A stretch of DNA of 64,000 nucleotides from Elusimicrobiota bacterium. GTDB taxonomy: Bacteria > Elusimicrobiota > Elusimicrobia > Elusimicrobiales > UBA9959. The notes beneath the pieces are model-generated. The model ran no database searches, had not been told where the DNA came from, and saw only the letters and a list, made by a program, of their open reading frames with translations. Below, in pieces: positions 35,378 to 43,380 of the stretch. The stretch spans positions 19,266 to 83,265 of the forward strand of contig JAAYVI010000014.1 of assembly GCA_012517235.1 (NCBI GenBank), read 5' to 3'. Position numbers and translations under genes: made by a program. Within the stretch, counting starts at the first letter, position 1; each line of letters opens with the position of its first letter.

Positions 35378-38191
35378 TTATAAGCCTTTTTCTCTCAGTT
35401 TTTTCTGGTACTCCGTTTCGAGTTTTTCTCTTACTAAATTGAATTCTTTTACAAGAGCGGCTTCTTTTTCTCTGTAATTTTCTTTTAATTGCTCTTCTCG
35501 TTTTTTGAGATTTGCGACTATTTCTTGTTCTTGATCGGTCAAAGCTTTCATTTTTGCTTTCTCCGCTTCGAGTTGAGAAATTTTTACGTGAAATTCTTCT
35601 TCCAAAGATTTTTTCTTTTCTTCGAATTTTTCCCGCAATTCTTTTTCTTTTTCGGTTAAAGTTTTCTCCAGTGTAAGTATTTTTTCGGAAAGTTCTCTGT
35701 TCTTTTCTCTGAGTTTTTCTTCAAGCTCTTCCAGATTTTTATTTATTAACACGTCTCTGTTTATTCCTTCCGCTTTTTGTTTAATAAGACTTTCATAAGA
35801 TGTTTCTATTTGTTGTATCCTTAAAAGAAGATTCTTTTCTCTTAAAGAATAAGTTTCTTCCAAAGATTTAGCCAATTTTTCATGTTTTTGAGAGTAAAAC
35901 GAGGATAAATTTTCCATTTCTTTCTTTTTTTCCTCGTCGTAATTTTTCTTTAAGGATTCTATCTTTGCCAAAAACTCGTCTTCTCTCGTTTTTTCCGCTT
36001 CTTTGTAATGAAGCGCCATTTGAGAAATATGATTTAAATATTTTTCTTCCAGAGTTTTTGTTTTATCCCAAAATTCCTTTTCTATCATTTTTTTCGTCAT
36101 CAAAGCCGTTTCGTTTTTTTCTCTTTCGAGATCGGCTTTTTCGCGCTTTAGTTTTTCTATTTCGTCTTGAGCTTGAAAAATTTTTTGGGAAATCTCAACA
36201 GAGTTTCTTCTTATTTCTTCGAGTTCTTTTTCTTTTCCGGAAAGATTTTCCTTTAAAAAGGAGATTTCTTCCTCTTTTTCTTTAATTTTTATTTCAAACT
36301 CTTTTAGAATGGAATTTTTATCTCTTTCGGCCTTTTGCGAAAGTTCTCTTTTCAAAAGATTTTCTTTTGCTAAAAATTCTTCCCGCAGTCTTTTCTCGGT
36401 CTCTTCGAGTTCTTTATTTTTTTCGGCTATTATCTTTTCTCTTTCCTGTTCGAATTGGGCTATTAGTTTTTTTCTTTCCGAAGAAAATTCTTCGGCGATT
36501 TTTTTTAATTCTTTTTCGTTATTATTTTTAATAAGTTCTATTTCTTTTAAATAATTTTCTTTTTTCCCCTTAAGTATTTCTTCGTGTCTTTTCTTGAGAT
36601 TTTCCATTTCTTGGGCAAAATTTTCTTTTAAGGCCGCCCATCCCTTCCTTTCGGCTTCCGCTCTTTCTTTCTCGAGTTTTAATTCGAAATCAAATTTTTC
36701 TTTAAGGGAGGCGGCTATTTCTTTTTCTTTGTTCTCCGCGGCGGACAGAGCTTCTTTTATTATCTTTTCTTTCTGAAGAGCGAACTCTTCCCGTTCTTTT
36801 TTCAGCATTTCCGCTATGGAGTTTTTTTCCGCAGCGATAGATTCTATTTGTTTTAAATAATTATTTTTTTCTTTCTCTATTTCCGCGGTTTTTTTTAGAA
36901 GTTTTTCTTTTTCTCTTTCCAATATTTTTTCTTTGGCGGCAAAGGCTTCCGCTAAAGAATTTTTATACAATGACGCCGCGGCTTCGTGGGCCTGGGCTAT
37001 TTCTCTTTCTTTTTTTATAAGAGTTTGCGATATTTCTTTTTCCAGATTTTCGAAATATTCTTTTCTGTTTTCAAGATCTTTTTCTTTTTCTTTTAAAGTG
37101 TCCATTTTTTGAGAGTATCTGTTCTCCAGATCTTTTATTTTTAAAGCGGCTTCTTCTTTTATATTTTCTTCTTTTTCTTCCAGAGACAATAATCTTTTTT
37201 CGTATTCGTTTTCCAGTTCTTCTTTTTTAAACAGATATTCTTTCTGCAGTTTTTCCGTTTCTATGCGGTTTTGCCGCGATTGTACGGCGTATTCTTCTTT
37301 TAGTTTTTCTATTTGAACGGCAAAATCTCTGCGTAAATTTTCTATTTCGAGATTTTTGGCTTCCAAGGACTCCTTGAGAGAATTTATTTCAAACAGACGA
37401 GTTTGTTCGTAAGCTTTTATTTTATCGGAGTATTCTTTTTCAAATATCGCTTTGCTTTGTTCCAAATAAGAACGAAAATCCGCAATTTCCTCTTGATGTC
37501 TTTGCGCATACTGCGAACTTATTTTAAGCGTTTCTTCTGTTAGAGTTTTTTCGCTTTCTTTTTTGAAATCGTCTTTTAATTTTTCTATTTCCGCTTTGTG
37601 CTTTTTTTCCAGCGTTTCTTTTAAATTTTCTATTTTGGCTCGGTAAATTTCTTCCGTTTGTTTGGAATTTTGTTCGAGTTTGTTTTTGTAATCGGTTCTA
37701 AGTTCGTCCAATCTGGTAAGGAAAAGCTCTTTTTCTTTTTCTATTTCCCATTCCTTTTCTTCCCGCCATTTTAAGAAGAGTTTTTTGCTTTCTTGGGTTA
37801 TTTTTTCTCTGTAATTTTTAAGTTCTTCTTCTTTTTGAGCCAGTATTTGTTCCAATCGGGCTTTTTCCGCTTCCGTTTCTTCTCTCTGTCTGTTTACCGC
37901 TTCTTCCAGCAGTTCTTTATATTTATTCCAAAGCCTGCTTTCCTTTTCGGCTAAAATCCGGCTTATTTCTTCTTCTTTTCTGGCAAATTTCTCTTCTTTT
38001 AACTTCATTAAAGTTTCGTATTCCAATTCCTTTGTTTTTGCGGCCTTTTGCGCTTCTTCTTCTATCTTTGCCCGCATTCCGGCAAGTTGGGATTCCTTTT
38101 CTTTAAGCTCGCTTGACAGGCGCAGTATTATCTTTGCGCTGTCTATTTCGCTTTGCGATACTTGAGAAGATTCCAGAAAATCCCAATCCAT
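35378..38191 (-). CDS. giant coiled-coil-rich protein (E/K-rich), downstream paralog
   Basis: 937 aa, almost entirely Glu/Lys/Leu heptad-like sequence with no enzymatic motif. The ATG lies 2 nt after the stop of the upstream paralog. Confidence 0.8.
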   Translation of the reverse strand: MDWDFLESSQVSQSEIDSAKIILRLSSELKEKESQLAGMRAKIEEEAQKAAKTKELEYETLMKLKEEKFARKEEEISRILAEKESRLWNKYKELLEEAVNRQREETEAEKARLEQILAQKEEELKNYREKITQESKKLFLKWREEKEWEIEKEKELFLTRLDELRTDYKNKLEQNSKQTEEIYRAKIENLKETLEKKHKAEIEKLKDDFKKESEKTLTEETLKISSQYAQRHQEEIADFRSYLEQSKAIFEKEYSDKIKAYEQTRLFEINSLKESLEAKNLEIENLRRDFAVQIEKLKEEYAVQSRQNRIETEKLQKEYLFKKEELENEYEKRLLSLEEKEENIKEEAALKIKDLENRYSQKMDTLKEKEKDLENRKEYFENLEKEISQTLIKKEREIAQAHEAAASLYKNSLAEAFAAKEKILEREKEKLLKKTAEIEKEKNNYLKQIESIAAEKNSIAEMLKKEREEFALQKEKIIKEALSAAENKEKEIAASLKEKFDFELKLEKERAEAERKGWAALKENFAQEMENLKKRHEEILKGKKENYLKEIELIKNNNEKELKKIAEEFSSERKKLIAQFEQEREKIIAEKNKELEETEKRLREEFLAKENLLKRELSQKAERDKNSILKEFEIKIKEKEEEISFLKENLSGKEKELEEIRRNSVEISQKIFQAQDEIEKLKREKADLEREKNETALMTKKMIEKEFWDKTKTLEEKYLNHISQMALHYKEAEKTREDEFLAKIESLKKNYDEEKKKEMENLSSFYSQKHEKLAKSLEETYSLREKNLLLRIQQIETSYESLIKQKAEGINRDVLINKNLEELEEKLREKNRELSEKILTLEKTLTEKEKELREKFEEKKKSLEEEFHVKISQLEAEKAKMKALTDQEQEIVANLKKREEQLKENYREKEAALVKEFNLVREKLETEYQKKLREKGL

Positions 38192-38193
38192 AT

Positions 38194-41100
38194 TTATTTT
38201 TCTTCCTTAATTTTATTTTGCCAGTATCTTACGAGTTCTTCTTCTTTGGCTTTATATTTTTCCGTCAATTCTTTTTCTTTCGCCAGAGCTTTTGAAACGG
38301 CCTTATTTTTTTCTTCTTCCAATTCTTTTTCTTTTTGCCTGAAAGCGTCTTCGAGTTCTTTTCTGAGTTTATCCATTTGAGCTCTGGCTTTTTCAAAATG
38401 TTCGAAATACTCTCTTTCCAAAAGATTCATTTTTGAAGCGTAGACCTCTTCCGTTTTTTTCTTTTCTTCGGCAAGAATTTCTCTTTGCCTTAAAACAAAA
38501 GCGTTAAGTTCGTTTTCCTTTTTTTCATATTGAGCTTTAAGAGAAATTCTTTCCGCTTCCAATATTTCAAATTTCTTTTTTTCCCATTCTTCTTTTTCTT
38601 TAGAGAAGGAATCCAGAAATCTCTGGGTTTCTTCCGTTTTTTCTTTTTCGAATTTAATTTTTTCTTCTTCGAATTTTTCTCTTATTTCTTTAATTTTTGT
38701 TTCATATTCGGACGAAAGCTTTTGAGAGATTTCGCTTATTTTTTGAGAGTAGGATGCTTCGAGCTGCGAAATTTTTTCAAAATGAGCTTTTTGAAGCTCG
38801 TCTTTTCTGCTTTCGAAATATTCGTTCAGCTTAAGTTTTTCTTTGGCAAGTTCGGAAATGACATATTTCTCCGCCGCCGCTTTTCTCTCGGAAAATTCGT
38901 GTTCCAAATTTTTTACTTTTTCAGAGTAAAGAGCTTCGAGAGATCTTTCTCTGTTTTTAAGGGCTTCTTTTCTCCTTTCATAATCGGCTTCCAGGGCTTC
39001 TTTTTTCTCAAGAACCTGTTTGTTTAGTTCGTCTTTGGCTTTTGAGAGCGAATCAAAGAGATTTTGTTCTTTTACCGCAAATTCGGCGATAAGTTTTTCT
39101 TTAAATTCGTTTTTTTCTTTTTCCGCCTTTTCCATTATTGCTTTAAGTTCTTTTTCTTTTTCTCTTAAAGATTCTTGAGAATTTAAAAATTCTTCTTTTA
39201 GCTTTTCTTTTTGAGCGGCCAGTTCGATTTCGTTTTGTTTTGCGAATTCTCTGATCTTTTCTTCGTATCTGGTTCTTTCTTCAAGGAGATCTTGTTCCAA
39301 TTTTTTCTCTCTGTTTTCCAGAGCAAGTTCTTTGTTTTCGTATTGTTTTTTAAGAATTTCTTCTCTTTTTTTAAGACTGTCTTGAAGTTTTTCTTGCGAT
39401 TCCTTAAACCATCTCGCATATTTTTCCGAAATTTCTTTTTCTCTTTTCGCCGTTTCGGCTTCCGTTTCGGCCCTGGCGTCGGATAATTTTTTTAAGAGTT
39501 CTTGTTTTTCTTGAAGGTAAAAAGCTTCCTTTTTTTCGAACTCTTCTTTCATCGATTTAATCCATAGTTCGTTTTCCTTAAGCAGCAAATCCTTTTGTTC
39601 TTTTATTTCGAGGGCGGCTTTCGCTTCTAGATCCGCTTCTTTTTGAGAATATTTTAGTTTCAATTCGTCTTCGAAATGAACGAGCTTTTGTTTTAAGACG
39701 TCTCTATAGGAAGAAAATTCTTTTTTTAATTTTTCTTTTTCCCTATGTAACTCGTCTTCTTTCGCGGCTATATATTGTCTTTTTTCGGCCGCGGCTTGTT
39801 CGTGCAGCGCGCTTATTTCCTCATTTATTTTTTCTTTTAATTCTTTTTCTTTTGCCGAGAACTCTTCGATTAGTTTATTTCTTTCCGAATCTATTTTCTC
39901 TTCAAATTCTCTTTTTAATTCTTTTTTAATTTTTTCTATTTCTTCGTTTTTTTGTCTTTCCAGATCGTTTTGCGCTTGAGTCAGTTTATTTCTAAAAAAT
40001 TCTTCGTATTCGCCGGATTTTTTTTGAAGTTCCTGCGCCCATTTATTATCGTTTTCGGCCAAAAGACGGTTTTTTTCCTGGGCGGCTTTTGCCGAAAAAT
40101 CTTTCCATTTTAAACGAATTTCCTCCGCGGCTTTTTCGAAATTTACCGCATTTTCCGAATCGTGCTTTTTTATCAGTTCCAGGAGATGTTCTTCCAATTT
40201 AAGTCTTGTTTGTACGTATTCTTTCTCTCTTTGGGCCGCAAAATTTTCTATTTTTTCCGTCATTTCCGCCAAAGCCGCCGCATGGGCTTTTTCGGCTTCT
40301 TCCAGCTTGGCTTGATAGCTTACGGCAAGTTCTTTTTCTTTTAAAGCAAACTCTTGAGCGGCTTTTTCTCTTTCCGCCAATATCAGCGTTTCTATTTGAG
40401 AAGATTTTTTGATATATTCTTCGGATAATTTGGCTCTTTCTCGAGACAGAAAGTCTTCGGCTTCTTTTTTTCTTTTTTCTATTTCGTTTAAAAGAAATTC
40501 TTTCTCTTTTTCGTATTTTTTTCTTAAGTTTTCCGATTCTATTTCGACTTTTTCAAGAGCTTTTCTTTCGGCTTGAGCCGCCAATTGCGCGCTTTTTTCT
40601 CTTTCTTTGGCCAATTGATTCTCTAAGGACGAAAGTTTTTCTTCGTAAATTTTTTCCAGATTTAATCTCAATTCTTCCGTTGCGGCGCGTCTTTTTTCTT
40701 CGCTGTCGGCAGAAAAACGCTCCAAGGCTTCTTTTAGAGAGAGAGAGTTTTTTTCGTATTCTTCTTTGTATTTTTCAACCAGAGCCAAAGCTTCTTCGTT
40801 TTTAAATCTTGAAATTTGAGAAATTTCTTGAGTCCATTGAGATTTTAAGTTTCCTATTTCGATTTCTTTTTGAGCCAAAAGATTTTTAAGCTCCTTTACT
40901 TCTTCTTCGAGTCTTTTTTTGGCCGAAAGCATATGAGCCGTTTCTTCGTTGATTATTTGCTGTCTTAATTTTTTCTTTAATTCTGTCTCTATTTCGCTTT
41001 GAGTTCTCGCGTTCTCTTCCCAGGCTTTCACCGTCGATTGCCATTTCTTTACGGTTTCTTCGCTTTGTTCGGCTCTTAAGATAAGCTCTCTTATTTGATT

Positions 41101-41247
41101 TTCTCTTTTTATCTTTTCTTCTTTTAAGAGGGTAAGCTCTTCTTTCATCTCTTTAAGTTTTTCTACGGTCCATTTTAACGAAAGCTTTGCCGTTTCCAAA
41201 TCGCTTACTCCGGCGGGGTCTAATTTTAAGTTTTCTTCAAATTCCAT
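38194..41247 (-). CDS. giant coiled-coil-rich protein (E/K-rich), upstream paralog
   Basis: 1017 aa with the same composition and the same recurring L-x-x-x-[YF]-x-x-K module as the downstream gene. No Walker or other catalytic motifs. Confidence 0.8.
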   Translation of the reverse strand: MEFEENLKLDPAGVSDLETAKLSLKWTVEKLKEMKEELTLLKEEKIKRENQIRELILRAEQSEETVKKWQSTVKAWEENARTQSEIETELKKKLRQQIINEETAHMLSAKKRLEEEVKELKNLLAQKEIEIGNLKSQWTQEISQISRFKNEEALALVEKYKEEYEKNSLSLKEALERFSADSEEKRRAATEELRLNLEKIYEEKLSSLENQLAKEREKSAQLAAQAERKALEKVEIESENLRKKYEKEKEFLLNEIEKRKKEAEDFLSRERAKLSEEYIKKSSQIETLILAEREKAAQEFALKEKELAVSYQAKLEEAEKAHAAALAEMTEKIENFAAQREKEYVQTRLKLEEHLLELIKKHDSENAVNFEKAAEEIRLKWKDFSAKAAQEKNRLLAENDNKWAQELQKKSGEYEEFFRNKLTQAQNDLERQKNEEIEKIKKELKREFEEKIDSERNKLIEEFSAKEKELKEKINEEISALHEQAAAEKRQYIAAKEDELHREKEKLKKEFSSYRDVLKQKLVHFEDELKLKYSQKEADLEAKAALEIKEQKDLLLKENELWIKSMKEEFEKKEAFYLQEKQELLKKLSDARAETEAETAKREKEISEKYARWFKESQEKLQDSLKKREEILKKQYENKELALENREKKLEQDLLEERTRYEEKIREFAKQNEIELAAQKEKLKEEFLNSQESLREKEKELKAIMEKAEKEKNEFKEKLIAEFAVKEQNLFDSLSKAKDELNKQVLEKKEALEADYERRKEALKNRERSLEALYSEKVKNLEHEFSERKAAAEKYVISELAKEKLKLNEYFESRKDELQKAHFEKISQLEASYSQKISEISQKLSSEYETKIKEIREKFEEEKIKFEKEKTEETQRFLDSFSKEKEEWEKKKFEILEAERISLKAQYEKKENELNAFVLRQREILAEEKKKTEEVYASKMNLLEREYFEHFEKARAQMDKLRKELEDAFRQKEKELEEEKNKAVSKALAKEKELTEKYKAKEEELVRYWQNKIKEEK

Positions 41248-41365
41248 TTCGCCTCCGGGCTTACGCCCAAGACATAAGGTAAAATAAAGCGCTTACCTTA
41301 AATTATATATTATAAAATCCGGCGCAAAAATATATTTTCAAAATATTAAATTAATGTTTCAAAAG

Positions 41366-41394
41366 AGAAAAAGAGGATTTTTTATCCTCTTTTT
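41366..41394 (-). terminator. intrinsic (symmetric) terminator after rpmB
   Basis: AAAAAGAGGAT-TTTTT-ATCCTCTTTTT: a 7-bp GC-containing stem flanked by an A-run and a T-run, 19 nt downstream of the rpmB stop. Confidence 0.6.
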
Positions 41395-41683: not shown

Positions 41684-42400
41684 ATGAATTTCTCAGATAT
41701 TCAAAAACTTGTAGACTTGGCAGAAGCGGATTTGCGTTTGTTTGATATAGATAAGCAGCTTCGCGATCTTGATGCGTCTTTCAAAACCCTCGAGGAAAAA
41801 GAACAGAAAGCGGCGGAAATAGTTTTTGCCGCCGCGAAAGAAAAAGAAAATGCGGCGCTTAAAAGAAAAAACGCGGAAATTTCTTTGGCTCAAGCCGAAG
41901 AATCCTTAAAGAAAAGAAAAGAGTCTTCTCAAAATATCAAAAACGCTCAGGCCGCTCAAAAGTTAGAATCCGAAATGGCGGCTTTGTCCGATGAGATTTC
42001 CAATCTTGAAACGGAAATACTCTCTCTTATGGAAGCGGAAAAAGAAGCCGAAGATAGAAAAAAGAATGCGGAAAAAGAAGCCGCAGAAGCACGGAAATCG
42101 GCACGGGATGCGTCGGTTAAAATAAAAGAAAAGGAAGATTCTTTATCGGCTTTAAAAAAACAAGAGGAAGAAAAAAGAGAATCTTTGGCCAAATTATGCG
42201 ACGTCGATTTTCTTTCCAAATACGAAGCTGTCAAAAAAAAGAAATTTCCGGCTTTGGTTTCTTGTTCTTTTAGAGAGGGAAAATTGTTTTGCGGCGGCTG
42301 CGGCATGTCTTTGACGGCTTCTCAGTCCGAAGAAATTAAAAAGGGAAATTCGCTGTTAAATTGCATGAACTGTTTTAGACTGATTTACTTTAAAAAATGA
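41684..42400 (+). CDS. DUF164-type coiled-coil plus C4 zinc-ribbon protein (HP0958/CT398-like)
   Basis: 238 aa: a long Glu/Lys/Ala coiled-coil hairpin followed by C-x2-C ... C-x2-C (FCGGCGM ... LNCMNCFRL). Confidence 0.75.
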   Translation: MNFSDIQKLVDLAEADLRLFDIDKQLRDLDASFKTLEEKEQKAAEIVFAAAKEKENAALKRKNAEISLAQAEESLKKRKESSQNIKNAQAAQKLESEMAALSDEISNLETEILSLMEAEKEAEDRKKNAEKEAAEARKSARDASVKIKEKEDSLSALKKQEEEKRESLAKLCDVDFLSKYEAVKKKKFPALVSCSFREGKLFCGGCGMSLTASQSEEIKKGNSLLNCMNCFRLIYFKK

Positions 42401-42409
42401 GAGGGGTAC

Positions 42410-42889
42410 ATGAAGGAAAAAAAACTTAGAATTTATATAGACGGAGGTTCAAGAGGGAATCCCGGTCCGGCGGCATGTTCCGCAGTTATAATGAACGAAA
42501 AAGGAGACGTGATAGGCGAAGAAGGACGTTTTTTGGGAAAAACCACAAATAATGTCGCCGAATATTCCGGTCTTCATTTGGCTTTGACATGCGCGTCAAG
42601 GCTCGGAGCGGATAAGCTGGAGATATACTCCGATTCTCAGCTTTTAGTCAAACAATTTTGCGGCGAGTATAAACTTAAGGACGAAAAACTATCGGAAATG
42701 ATGAAAATAATAAGCAAAGATTTGTCCAAATTTAAAGAAGTTAAGCTAAAATATATAAAAAGAGAAGAAAATAAACTTGCCGATAAACTTGTAAATTCCA
42801 TATTGGATTCTAAAAAATTATCCGATAAAGAAAATTTGAAATTAGCTAAAGAAAGAAGAGAAACTTTCAAGCAGGAAGAACTTTTTTAA
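42410..42889 (+). CDS. rnhA: ribonuclease HI (type 1 RNase H)
   Basis: 159 aa with YIDGGSRGNPGPAA, NNVAEYSGL, YSDSQL and NKLADKL providing the D-E-D-D catalytic set. Confidence 0.85.
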   Translation: MKEKKLRIYIDGGSRGNPGPAACSAVIMNEKGDVIGEEGRFLGKTTNNVAEYSGLHLALTCASRLGADKLEIYSDSQLLVKQFCGEYKLKDEKLSEMMKIISKDLSKFKEVKLKYIKREENKLADKLVNSILDSKKLSDKENLKLAKERRETFKQEELF

Positions 42890-43245
42890 GCGGCGGACGG
42901 AACGTCGCCGCGGACTTTTAGTTCGCGGAGGAACTTCCGGACTTCTCAAGGGAGCGCGCCCGCCGAAAGGCGGGGGACATAAAGGGAAACCTTTATGCCA
43001 CGGAAAGTGCAGCAGAAAATATACCGCCCGCAGAGTAGTTTAAGGCGGGTAAGGGTGAAAAGGCGCGGTAAGAGCGCACCGCTTCGGCGGCAACGCCGAA
43101 GGCAATGAAAACCCCGCGCGAAGCAAGGATAAACATGCGCAGGTCCCCTTGCCGATTGCGCTTATGCGCAAAGCGCAGAGTAATCCGCTCAGATAAATGA
43201 CGTTCGGCCTTAGGGCTACAGAATCCGGGGTATAGTCCGCCGCTT
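42888..43245 (+). ncRNA. rnpB: RNase P RNA (bacterial type A)
   Basis: P1 is formed by AAGCGGCGGAC (42888-42898) pairing with GTCCGCCGCTT (43235-43245). Conserved blocks on the + strand: GGAGGAACTTCCGG (CR-I/P4 5' strand), GGTAAGGGTGAAAAGGCGCGGTAAGAGCGCACCGC (near-identical to E. coli M1 GGUAAGGGUGAAAGGGUGCGGUAAGAGCGCACCGC) and ACAGAATCCGGGGTATAG (P4 3' strand). About 358 nt. Confidence 0.88.
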
Positions 43246-43380
43246 AAATAGATGTATGGATGCATAGATGTGTGGATGTATAGCAAAAAAATATTAGAAG
43301 ATTGGACGATTAGAAGATTAGATGAATAGATGCGTAGAAGTATGGCAAAAAATGAGATTAGATGAATAAAAGAAAAAATA
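43246..43380 (+). repeat. octamer-phased C-poor intergenic element, copy B
   Basis: Block 1 (43249-43291): TAGATGTA TGGATGCA TAGATGTG TGGATGTA TAGCAAAAAAA. Block 2 (43295-43352): TAGAAGAT TGGACGAT TAGAAGAT TAGATGAA TAGATGCG TAGAAGTA TGGCAAAAAA. Only 5 C in 135 nt. It matches copy A at 65/75 positions. Confidence 0.8.

Follow-up and report, generated by a model that had tools for sequence, protein, structure and literature searches.

What kind of protein is encoded by 2 giant, neighboring coiled-coil genes of an Elusimicrobiota bacterium, and what might such proteins build together? The genes, here called A and B, lie on the minus strand of a 64,000-nucleotide stretch of a metagenome-assembled genome (GenBank assembly GCA_012517235.1, contig JAAYVI010000014.1, positions 19,266 to 83,265), which was analyzed as a whole and is called the window; all coordinates below are positions within it. 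Elusimicrobia are a poorly studied phylum, mostly uncultured and often ultra-small, and little is known of how their cells are organized. An earlier reading of the letters and open reading frames (ORFs), the original prediction, had proposed a dedicated filament or scaffold, either cytoskeletal or a tether for the envelope or chromosome, assembled from proteins with a shared, aromatic-punctuated module. We find that A and B are hendecad (11/3) coiled coils, not canonical heptad (7/2) ones, and that the pair is a conserved, dedicated unit, lineage-specific to Elusimicrobia. With a probability of roughly one half, we propose that the 2 proteins are cytoplasmic parallel rods that may co-assemble by their conserved ends into a scaffold or filament.

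A conserved pair of hendecad coiled coils

Gene A, the upstream member of the pair (38194-41247, minus strand), encodes a hendecad coiled coil of 1017 aa (122 kDa, pI 5.6); gene B, the downstream member (35378-38191, minus strand), encodes another of 937 aa (113 kDa, pI 5.6). These coordinates and lengths are exactly those originally predicted, and the junction, read directly, agrees as well: in the sequence GAA AAA TAA AT ATG, the ATG of B stands 2 nt past the stop of A in a different frame, so that TAA-AT-ATG (38189-38196, minus strand) is a likely site of translational coupling. Both proteins have the expected richness in Glu, Lys, and Leu (about 22.4%, 17%, and 11.5%), with 6-7% aromatics; Glu, Lys, and Arg together make up about 45% of A and B, and hydrophobic residues about 25%. 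Neither protein contains Cys, and Pro occurs once in A and nowhere in B. Walker A and B motifs were looked for in both and none was found. The Kyte-Doolittle maximum over 19-residue windows is 0.24 across A and B; hence neither has a transmembrane segment or signal peptide, again in line with the prediction. In AlphaFold2 models, A is a near-continuous helix over residues 17-1016 (from a 3-sequence alignment) and B over residues 13-934 (from single-sequence input), each with 2 short breaks, which fits the long fibrous alpha-helical proteins that had been envisaged.

The original prediction placed a Tyr or Phe in the same context roughly every 25-30 residues. The ten motif strings quoted for it are all present, and the pattern L-x3-[YF]-x2-[KR] is found at 17 places in A and at 12 in B, versus about 1.5 in shuffled sequences (z = 12 and 9). 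The spacing, however, is another one: the autocorrelation of aromatics has its maxima at lags 11, 22, and 33, and Fourier analysis yields nothing significant at periods of 25-30 (z < 2.5). The predicted count of about 35 sites in B also falls on inspection, since B has 59 aromatics, 31 of them with a hydrophobic residue at -4, and the full motif only 16 (loose) or 12 (strict) times. Around the aromatics of both proteins, hydrophobic residues recur at -11, -7, -4, +4, +7, and +11. The motif is the core signature of a hendecad a/e/h register: aromatic at a, Ile or Leu at e, and Leu at h.

The same period governs the hydrophobic positions as a whole. In A and B of the window, their Fourier spectrum peaks at 3.63-3.70 residues (z = 15-18) and has no power at 3.5. 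Across the homologues described below, the global period is 3.675 in 60/60 members of family A (range 3.66-3.685) and 3.625 in 53/55 members of family B, with a power 33-37 times that of chance in both families. The autocorrelation of A persists at each multiple of 11 through 88, with nothing at lag 14 or 51; at lag 51 the values are 0.11 (A) and 0.08 (B), versus 0.33-0.39 at lag 11. An 11/3 period would make paired helices nearly straight, or give them a slight right-handed twist. Self-BLASTP of A and B gave zero off-diagonal high-scoring segment pairs, and Tandem Repeats Finder gave just four DNA arrays, all short (35-48 nt) and low in score. On these 2 results the repeated sequence module fails and internal duplication was dropped; a super-repeat of 25-30 or of 51 residues was dropped too, as neither period is supported by Fourier analysis or autocorrelation.

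A charged helix of this length might also work alone, as a long monomeric spacer of the single stable alpha-helix type (ER/K domains), and the content of about 45% Glu, Lys, and Arg and the continuous predicted helix of A and B would suit such a role. The roughly 25% of hydrophobic residues does not, nor does the conserved, phase-coherent seam at 33-37 times chance, a feature that these domains lack; we regard this explanation as very improbable.

The surroundings of the seam carry information on pairing. On the helical wheel of both families, hydrophobic residues are confined to about +/-45 degrees; the flank at -45 degrees has 31-34% Lys plus Arg versus 8-10% Glu, and the flank at +75 degrees has 27-36% Glu. 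Parallel coiled-coil pairs juxtapose opposite flanks, and antiparallel pairs juxtapose like flanks. The asymmetry of a basic and an acidic flank is self-complementary in each protein and therefore favors parallel pairing. The same wheel bears on a different use of 11/3 helices, the amphipathic kind that lies on a lipid surface (apolipoproteins, perilipin, alpha-synuclein, LEA proteins) and would coat membrane or lipid rather than pair. An 11-residue periodicity is the hallmark of this kind, and the A profile has a weak match to apolipoprotein A-I over 156 residues (E = 0.1). That match is non-significant, though, and the hydrophobic stripe, at about +/-45 degrees, is narrow; one flank is basic and one acidic, whereas class A helices are basic at both interfaces; A and B have no Pro every 22 residues, are strongly acidic overall, and keep their register unbroken for hundreds of residues. 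Lipid-surface helices are thus an improbable account of the pair.

Is the pair itself real and of wider occurrence? A word-indexed protein search returned two homologues of A with about 30% identity, each followed by a B homologue collinear end to end; these B orthologues, directly behind the A orthologues, match B at E values of 1e-81 and 5e-78. Scanning GTDB for a sequence pattern, with each species represented by one genome, then gave 64 loci, all in metagenome-assembled genomes (MAGs) of Elusimicrobia or in unlabelled MAGs, which bears on the question of phyletic distribution raised with the original prediction. B lies behind A in 61/67 loci, and the remaining 6 loci end before the position of B. 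The gap between the 2 genes is 1-6 nt in about 25 loci, 30 nt or less in most, and 60-326 nt in about nine.

These data dispose of a simpler explanation, namely that a sequencing frameshift has divided what is really a single gene, or that an SMC/Rad50-type or surface M-like protein had been missed. The tight 2-nt junction is the sole point in its favor. A and B are separate ORFs in 61/61 informative loci from independent assemblies, with gaps of 1-326 nt, and each has its own orthologues; the frameshift check suggested with the original prediction thus finds two genuine genes. A and B also have no Walker motif, hinge, signal peptide, or anchor, no Pfam or NCBIfam match, and only Foldseek E values above 5 against the PDB. 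The probability left to this explanation is next to nil; it is already refuted by the comparative data.

The absence of a named family, also predicted, holds across a broader range of searches. Full-length A and B have 0 matches in Pfam and NCBIfam; heads and tails searched against Pfam at E <= 10 give noise only and no DivIVA. PADLOC and PHROGs have 0 matches to A or B, and the pair is therefore not a defense or phage module. A sequence search of the PDB with the family profiles finds nothing below E = 0.01, and Foldseek of the A model against the PDB gives E > 5, Rad50 and Smc coiled-coil segments included; the model is of low confidence, however, and fold searches with it therefore carry no meaning. 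Of 1.84 billion protein representatives searched by profile, 55 match, nearly all of them fragments of the A/B family. The word-indexed search, whose limit of 8000 candidates is saturated by low-complexity words, has no match with B alone; that collection seems to contain no B-family protein. Our literature search on coiled coils or a cytoskeleton in Elusimicrobia found nothing relevant.

Heads, rods, and a possible assembly

The 2 proteins share a plan and differ in its execution. The head of A (residues 1-115; 40903-41247, minus strand) begins with about 16 unstructured residues and continues as a Trp-rich heptad segment (KKWQ..W-EEN-W). Windows 1-66 and 34-99 of A have power at 3.5 and none at 3.667, the phase gains about 0.9 turn on a perfect 11/3 reference over residues 11-77, and phase tracking gives about 10 heptads within residues 1-77. 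The A rod (residues ~78-1017; 38197-41016, minus strand) then runs for about 85 near-continuous hendecads, with a phase drift within about 0.7 turn across some 940 residues. B lacks a heptad head of the A type. Its rod (residues ~20-937; 35381-38134, minus strand) consists of hendecads with about five short heptad interruptions, which account for the stepwise phase gains near residues 375, 440, 660, and 815-900 (total gain +1.84 turns).

Both proteins carry a related motif near the N-terminus. In A it spans residues 15-29 (SDLETAKLSLKWTVE; 41161-41205, minus strand) and in B residues 14-28 (SEIDSAKIILRLSSE; 38108-38152, minus strand). The motif noticed in the original prediction is real and gains strength when whole families are compared: the majority reads T-D-V-E-T-A-K-L-A-L-R-W-A-V-E in family A (columns mostly 83-100%, V17 76%) and T-E-L-D-S-A-K-M-V-L-R-L-T-S-E in family B (columns mostly 81-100%, residue 22 being V or I), and the consensus common to both heads is T-[DE]-x-[ED]-[TS]-A-K-[LM]-x-L-[RK].

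Conservation is concentrated at the ends. The head is the best-conserved part of family A, with column conservation of 0.75-0.92 over residues 1-132 and many 100% columns, W26, W69, and W76 among them; in family B, the best-conserved parts are N-terminal (residues 1-165) and within the C-terminal ~80 residues (about 860-925), at 0.7-0.8. The rod middles of both families stand at about 0.5. Composition is held across genomes of 34-66% G+C (Glu 16-22%, Lys plus Arg about 20%, Leu 10-13%, and 0-5 Pro per approximately 1000 residues), and both families are acidic, with a pI of about 5.5 and a median net charge of -25 (A) and -24 (B). The 60 full-length A homologues measure 962-1123 aa, and the commonest class of net indel in family A is 11 residues; B is 965-971 aa long in 41/55 species. 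The rods are clearly held under constraints of length and register.

Within the rod of A, residues 525-537 (F-E-D-E-L-K-L-K-Y-S-Q-K-E; nt 39637-39675, minus strand) are mostly invariant in three aligned A proteins and, unlike the surrounding rod, mostly conserved at 80% or more over the 60-member family. This mid-rod segment may mediate an interaction.

How are A and B related? Pairwise BLASTP is marginal (E = 0.04). Alignment of the 2 family alignments with hhalign gives a probability of 97% over 848 collinear columns (A 117-1017 versus B 22-937), and a 43-sequence B profile run against a database of 5.8 billion proteins found, among the best 8000 candidates, one A-family protein only (E = 3.4e-6). 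These matches, together with the shared head motif, which sits at the same distance from the N-terminus in both proteins, make A and B ancient, distant paralogues. What A has and B lacks is a heptad segment of about 95 residues that follows the shared motif.

Paralogy of this kind invites the idea of a keratin-like obligate heterodimer, in which one A and one B chain would lie side by side, parallel and in register over the full rod length. Adjacent and often coupled genes, collinear rods of similar length, and equal flank polarity in the 2 proteins all fit the idea, and the cores of the 2 proteins, when offset by 95, match in pattern along the first ~130-200 residues (local r = 0.53, 0.47, and 0.25). 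Yet no rigid offset keeps the proteins in phase, the best r being 0.185 versus 0.33-0.35 for each protein shifted by 11 against itself; B gains its +1.84 turns through heptad stretches that are absent from A; A ranges from 983 to 1054 aa among species in which B is fixed at 965-971 aa; and the flanks, self-complementary in each protein, do not disfavor homodimers. A rigid, full-length, in-register A:B heterodimer is not supported, and we consider obligate keratin-like pairing rather unlikely.

The arrangement that we prefer, at the even odds given above, is one of separate rods joined at their ends. A and B would be acidic, cytoplasmic, all-alpha fibrous proteins made from co-transcribed paralogous genes. 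The Lys/Arg flank and the Glu flank would let two parallel helices form salt bridges on both sides of the interface, and each protein would thereby become a parallel, probably two-stranded, near-untwisted rod of about 135-150 nm (at 0.15 nm per residue). The conserved ends could then link the rods of A with those of B in a higher-order intracellular scaffold or filament; candidate linking ends are the heptad, Trp-rich head of A, the N- and C-terminal segments of B, and the motif T-[DE]-x-[ED]-[TS]-A-K-[LM]-x-L-[RK] that the 2 proteins share. We infer the oligomeric state, parallel orientation, end-to-end assembly, and cytoskeletal or scaffold role, the last of these from sequence anatomy, the pattern of conservation, and analogy. 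The tethers offered as alternatives in the original prediction fare less well: export signals are absent from every family member, which makes an envelope tether unlikely, and the acidity of both families, with the net charges given above, speaks against a direct chromosome tether, likewise unlikely.

Several points weigh against a scaffold or filament of parallel rods. A and B are without a homologue of known function. Parallel pairing has a statistical flank asymmetry as its basis; the AlphaFold2 models are low-confidence monomers (pLDDT 62-64, pTM about 0.25), silent on oligomeric state, and hendecad coiled coils have been reported as hard AlphaFold targets (PMC11676326). Aromatics at a core position are unusual in two-stranded coils, so the rods may instead have three or four strands. 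Conservation at the ends is to be expected for many kinds of interaction, filament assembly being one. Finally, the gene neighborhood, with rpmB and in many species polyamine-synthesis genes close by, could point to another role.

A bolder version of the scaffold proposal, and an unlikely one on present evidence, is that A and B together form a cytoskeletal element specific to Elusimicrobia: straight, non-supercoiled hendecad rods of a fixed length of about 140 nm, whose conserved ends would connect to give a strut or lattice, heteropolymeric in make-up, by which cell dimensions would be set or stabilized. That rod length is comparable to the width of very small Elusimicrobia cells. If true, a system resembling intermediate filaments would have been invented independently here, with an 11- rather than a 7-residue ground plan.

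The transcription unit and its neighbors

The order rpmB-A-B is widespread: rpmB lies upstream on the same strand in 63/66 loci, at a median distance of 233 nt, and this synteny persists over lineages whose A proteins share only about 30% identity. In the window, rpmB (ribosomal protein L28; 41413-41604, minus strand) is an exact match to NLI09329.1, and a terminator-like hairpin behind it (41368-41394, minus strand) separates it from the A-B unit. The promoter-like region of the pair (41302-41352, minus strand) has a AATTTAATATTT box at 41352-41341 and TATAAT boxes at 41314-41309 and 41307-41302. Of 63 distinct rpmB-A spacers, 50-61 keep related boxes, AATTTAATATTT ... TTGTATAATT, and spacers from genomes with 60-66% G+C are among them. 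A GGAGG Shine-Dalgarno sequence (41252-41256, minus strand) stands 4 nt before the ATG of A, and CCGGAGG precedes A in at least 45 of the 63 spacers. Conservation of the boxes and of CCGGAGG means that the pair owns a conserved promoter; as the box spacing of the window differs from the family norm, its exact transcription start is uncertain. Judging from these signals, the 2 genes most likely share one transcript, begun at this promoter of their own, and often coupled translation. A regulator could bind at the AATTTAATATTT element. In the rpmB-A spacers (loci L001-L067), the AT-rich promoter box, AACAAGAATTTAATATTT ... TAAACAAGCCTTTTGTATAATTTCC, conserved in 50-61 of the 63, lies about 75-95 nt upstream of the A ATG, and the 5' UTR would be ~80 nt long.

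Downstream of B, the neighbor in the window is a convergent gene for MutS, identical to NLI09326.1. In 37-42 of 62 loci (L002, L004, L013, and L055 are examples), though not in the window, the genes behind B, also on its strand, serve polyamine synthesis; among them are a pyruvoyl-dependent arginine decarboxylase, agmatinase, and homologues of saccharopine-dehydrogenase-like and Orn/DAP/Arg-decarboxylase enzymes. This order may link the very Glu-rich A and B to polyamines, or may simply have been inherited.

Other features of the region can be described briefly. Divergent from rpmB, the plus-strand gene at 41684-42400 encodes a CT398/HP0958-like protein (a coiled-coil hairpin with a C4 zinc ribbon), which is not a conserved neighbor of the pair in other loci; next to it lies an RNase HI-like gene (42410-42889). 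An Rfam scan of the window found RNase P RNA only, of bacterial class A (42889-43248, plus strand, 222 bits), and the minus-strand ORF that overlaps it (42993-43286) is spurious. The AT skew is -0.44 to -0.46 over 36000-40000, which spans both A and B and reflects the purine-rich GAA, AAA, and AAG codons on the minus coding strand; this skewed composition gives rise to many long, spurious plus-strand ORFs rich in Phe, Ser, and Leu, such as that at 38530-39027.

Conservation across the 64 species genomes, of 34-66% G+C, constraints on length and register, and a strongly conserved promoter are marks of a core component of cell biology. The pair has carried no annotation, and no relatives were found elsewhere.

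Comparison with known systems

Some long helical families can be set aside by their defining features. SMC, MukB, RecN, and Rad50 proteins combine Walker head halves at their termini with a hinge or zinc hook at which the coiled coil folds back; A and B have no Walker motif and no Cys, and they stand apart from this group, as the original prediction held. Surface M-like proteins and autotransporter stalks have a signal peptide and an anchor in the cell wall or outer membrane; A and B show neither a hydrophobic N-terminus nor a C-terminal anchor, the N-termini of both families being polar and conserved. With exchangeable apolipoproteins and class A helices, A and B share the 11-residue period, but not the punctuation by Pro, the dual basic interfaces, or the wide hydrophobic face.

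Closer in geometry are the right-handed hendecad coils. The b2 stalk of F-type ATPases, the EG stalk of A/V-type ATPases, and tetrabrachion have an 11/3 period and are nearly straight or form a right-handed supercoil. Tetrabrachion is cited in PMC11676326. The 11/3 periodicity is common to A and B; the known examples, however, are far shorter, or are tetrameric and extracellular, and they are attached to a known machine, none of which is encoded beside A and B. The 2023 survey by Martinez-Goikoetxea and Lupas (J Struct Biol 215:108007), as it is described in PMC11676326, collected mostly-hendecad proteins from all proteomes. The A/B family is new and unannotated and of a known structural kind, and that survey may already list it. 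The ~85 consecutive natural hendecads of A make it a useful test case for non-heptad coiled-coil geometry, and likewise for structure predictors, whose performance on such sequences is poor.

Intermediate filament (IF) proteins offer a parallel in layout. They assemble without nucleotides, consensus motifs at their rod ends mediate longitudinal assembly, and their rods are heptad-based with short discontinuities of hendecad type. Like crescentin, CfpA, and eukaryotic IF proteins, A and B have a long alpha-helical rod whose ends are best conserved; unlike them, they are hendecad-based throughout the rod and have no non-helical head or tail beyond about 15 residues. The long coiled-coil rod also places both proteins alongside the bacterial functional class of coiled-coil-rich, IF-like proteins.

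Close analogues are Scy and FilP, the actinobacterial polarisome and IF-like proteins. Scy of Streptomyces (1326 aa) has a canonical coiled coil of 63 aa followed by a non-canonical rod of 1226 aa (PMC3718342); Scy and FilP contain hendecads, and the paralogue filP lies in the gene neighborhood of scy (PMC9858780). A has the matching layout, with about 10 heptads and then about 85 hendecads, and Scy and FilP are cytoplasmic and self-assembling, as A and B would be. The differences are several. The DivIVA-like N-terminal RGYDxxEVD motif, which in that group leads into a heptad dimerization helix (PMC9858780), is missing, as the heads of A (LDPSTITDVETAKLALRW) and B (ILKETELDSAKMVLRL) are without the (R)GYD loop. 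The CC51 super-repeat of Scy, 51 residues or 14 turns (PMC3718342), is absent from A and B, and its period of 3.643 compares with 3.675 (A) and 3.625 (B). FilP-group proteins range from fewer than 200 to more than 1000 residues (PMC3718342, PMC9858780), whereas A and B are both about 1000 aa. No sequence homology was detected, and the organisms are Elusimicrobia on one side and Actinobacteria on the other. On motif, 51-residue repeat, homology, and taxonomy, A and B are therefore an analogue of the Scy/FilP group and not a member.

For function, the model is a pair. ZicK and ZacK of Anabaena (Alr4504 and Alr4505) are adjacent coiled-coil-rich proteins that form filaments only together and do so without nucleotides (bioRxiv 10.1101/553073). 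No homology to A and B is detected, and the hendecad architecture, sizes, and phylum differ; the likeness lies in the functional model that we propose for A and B, in which the 2 proteins may, by analogy, depend on each other. If the rods polymerize, a non-homologous, hendecad-based analogue would join the short list of bacterial intermediate-filament-like systems.

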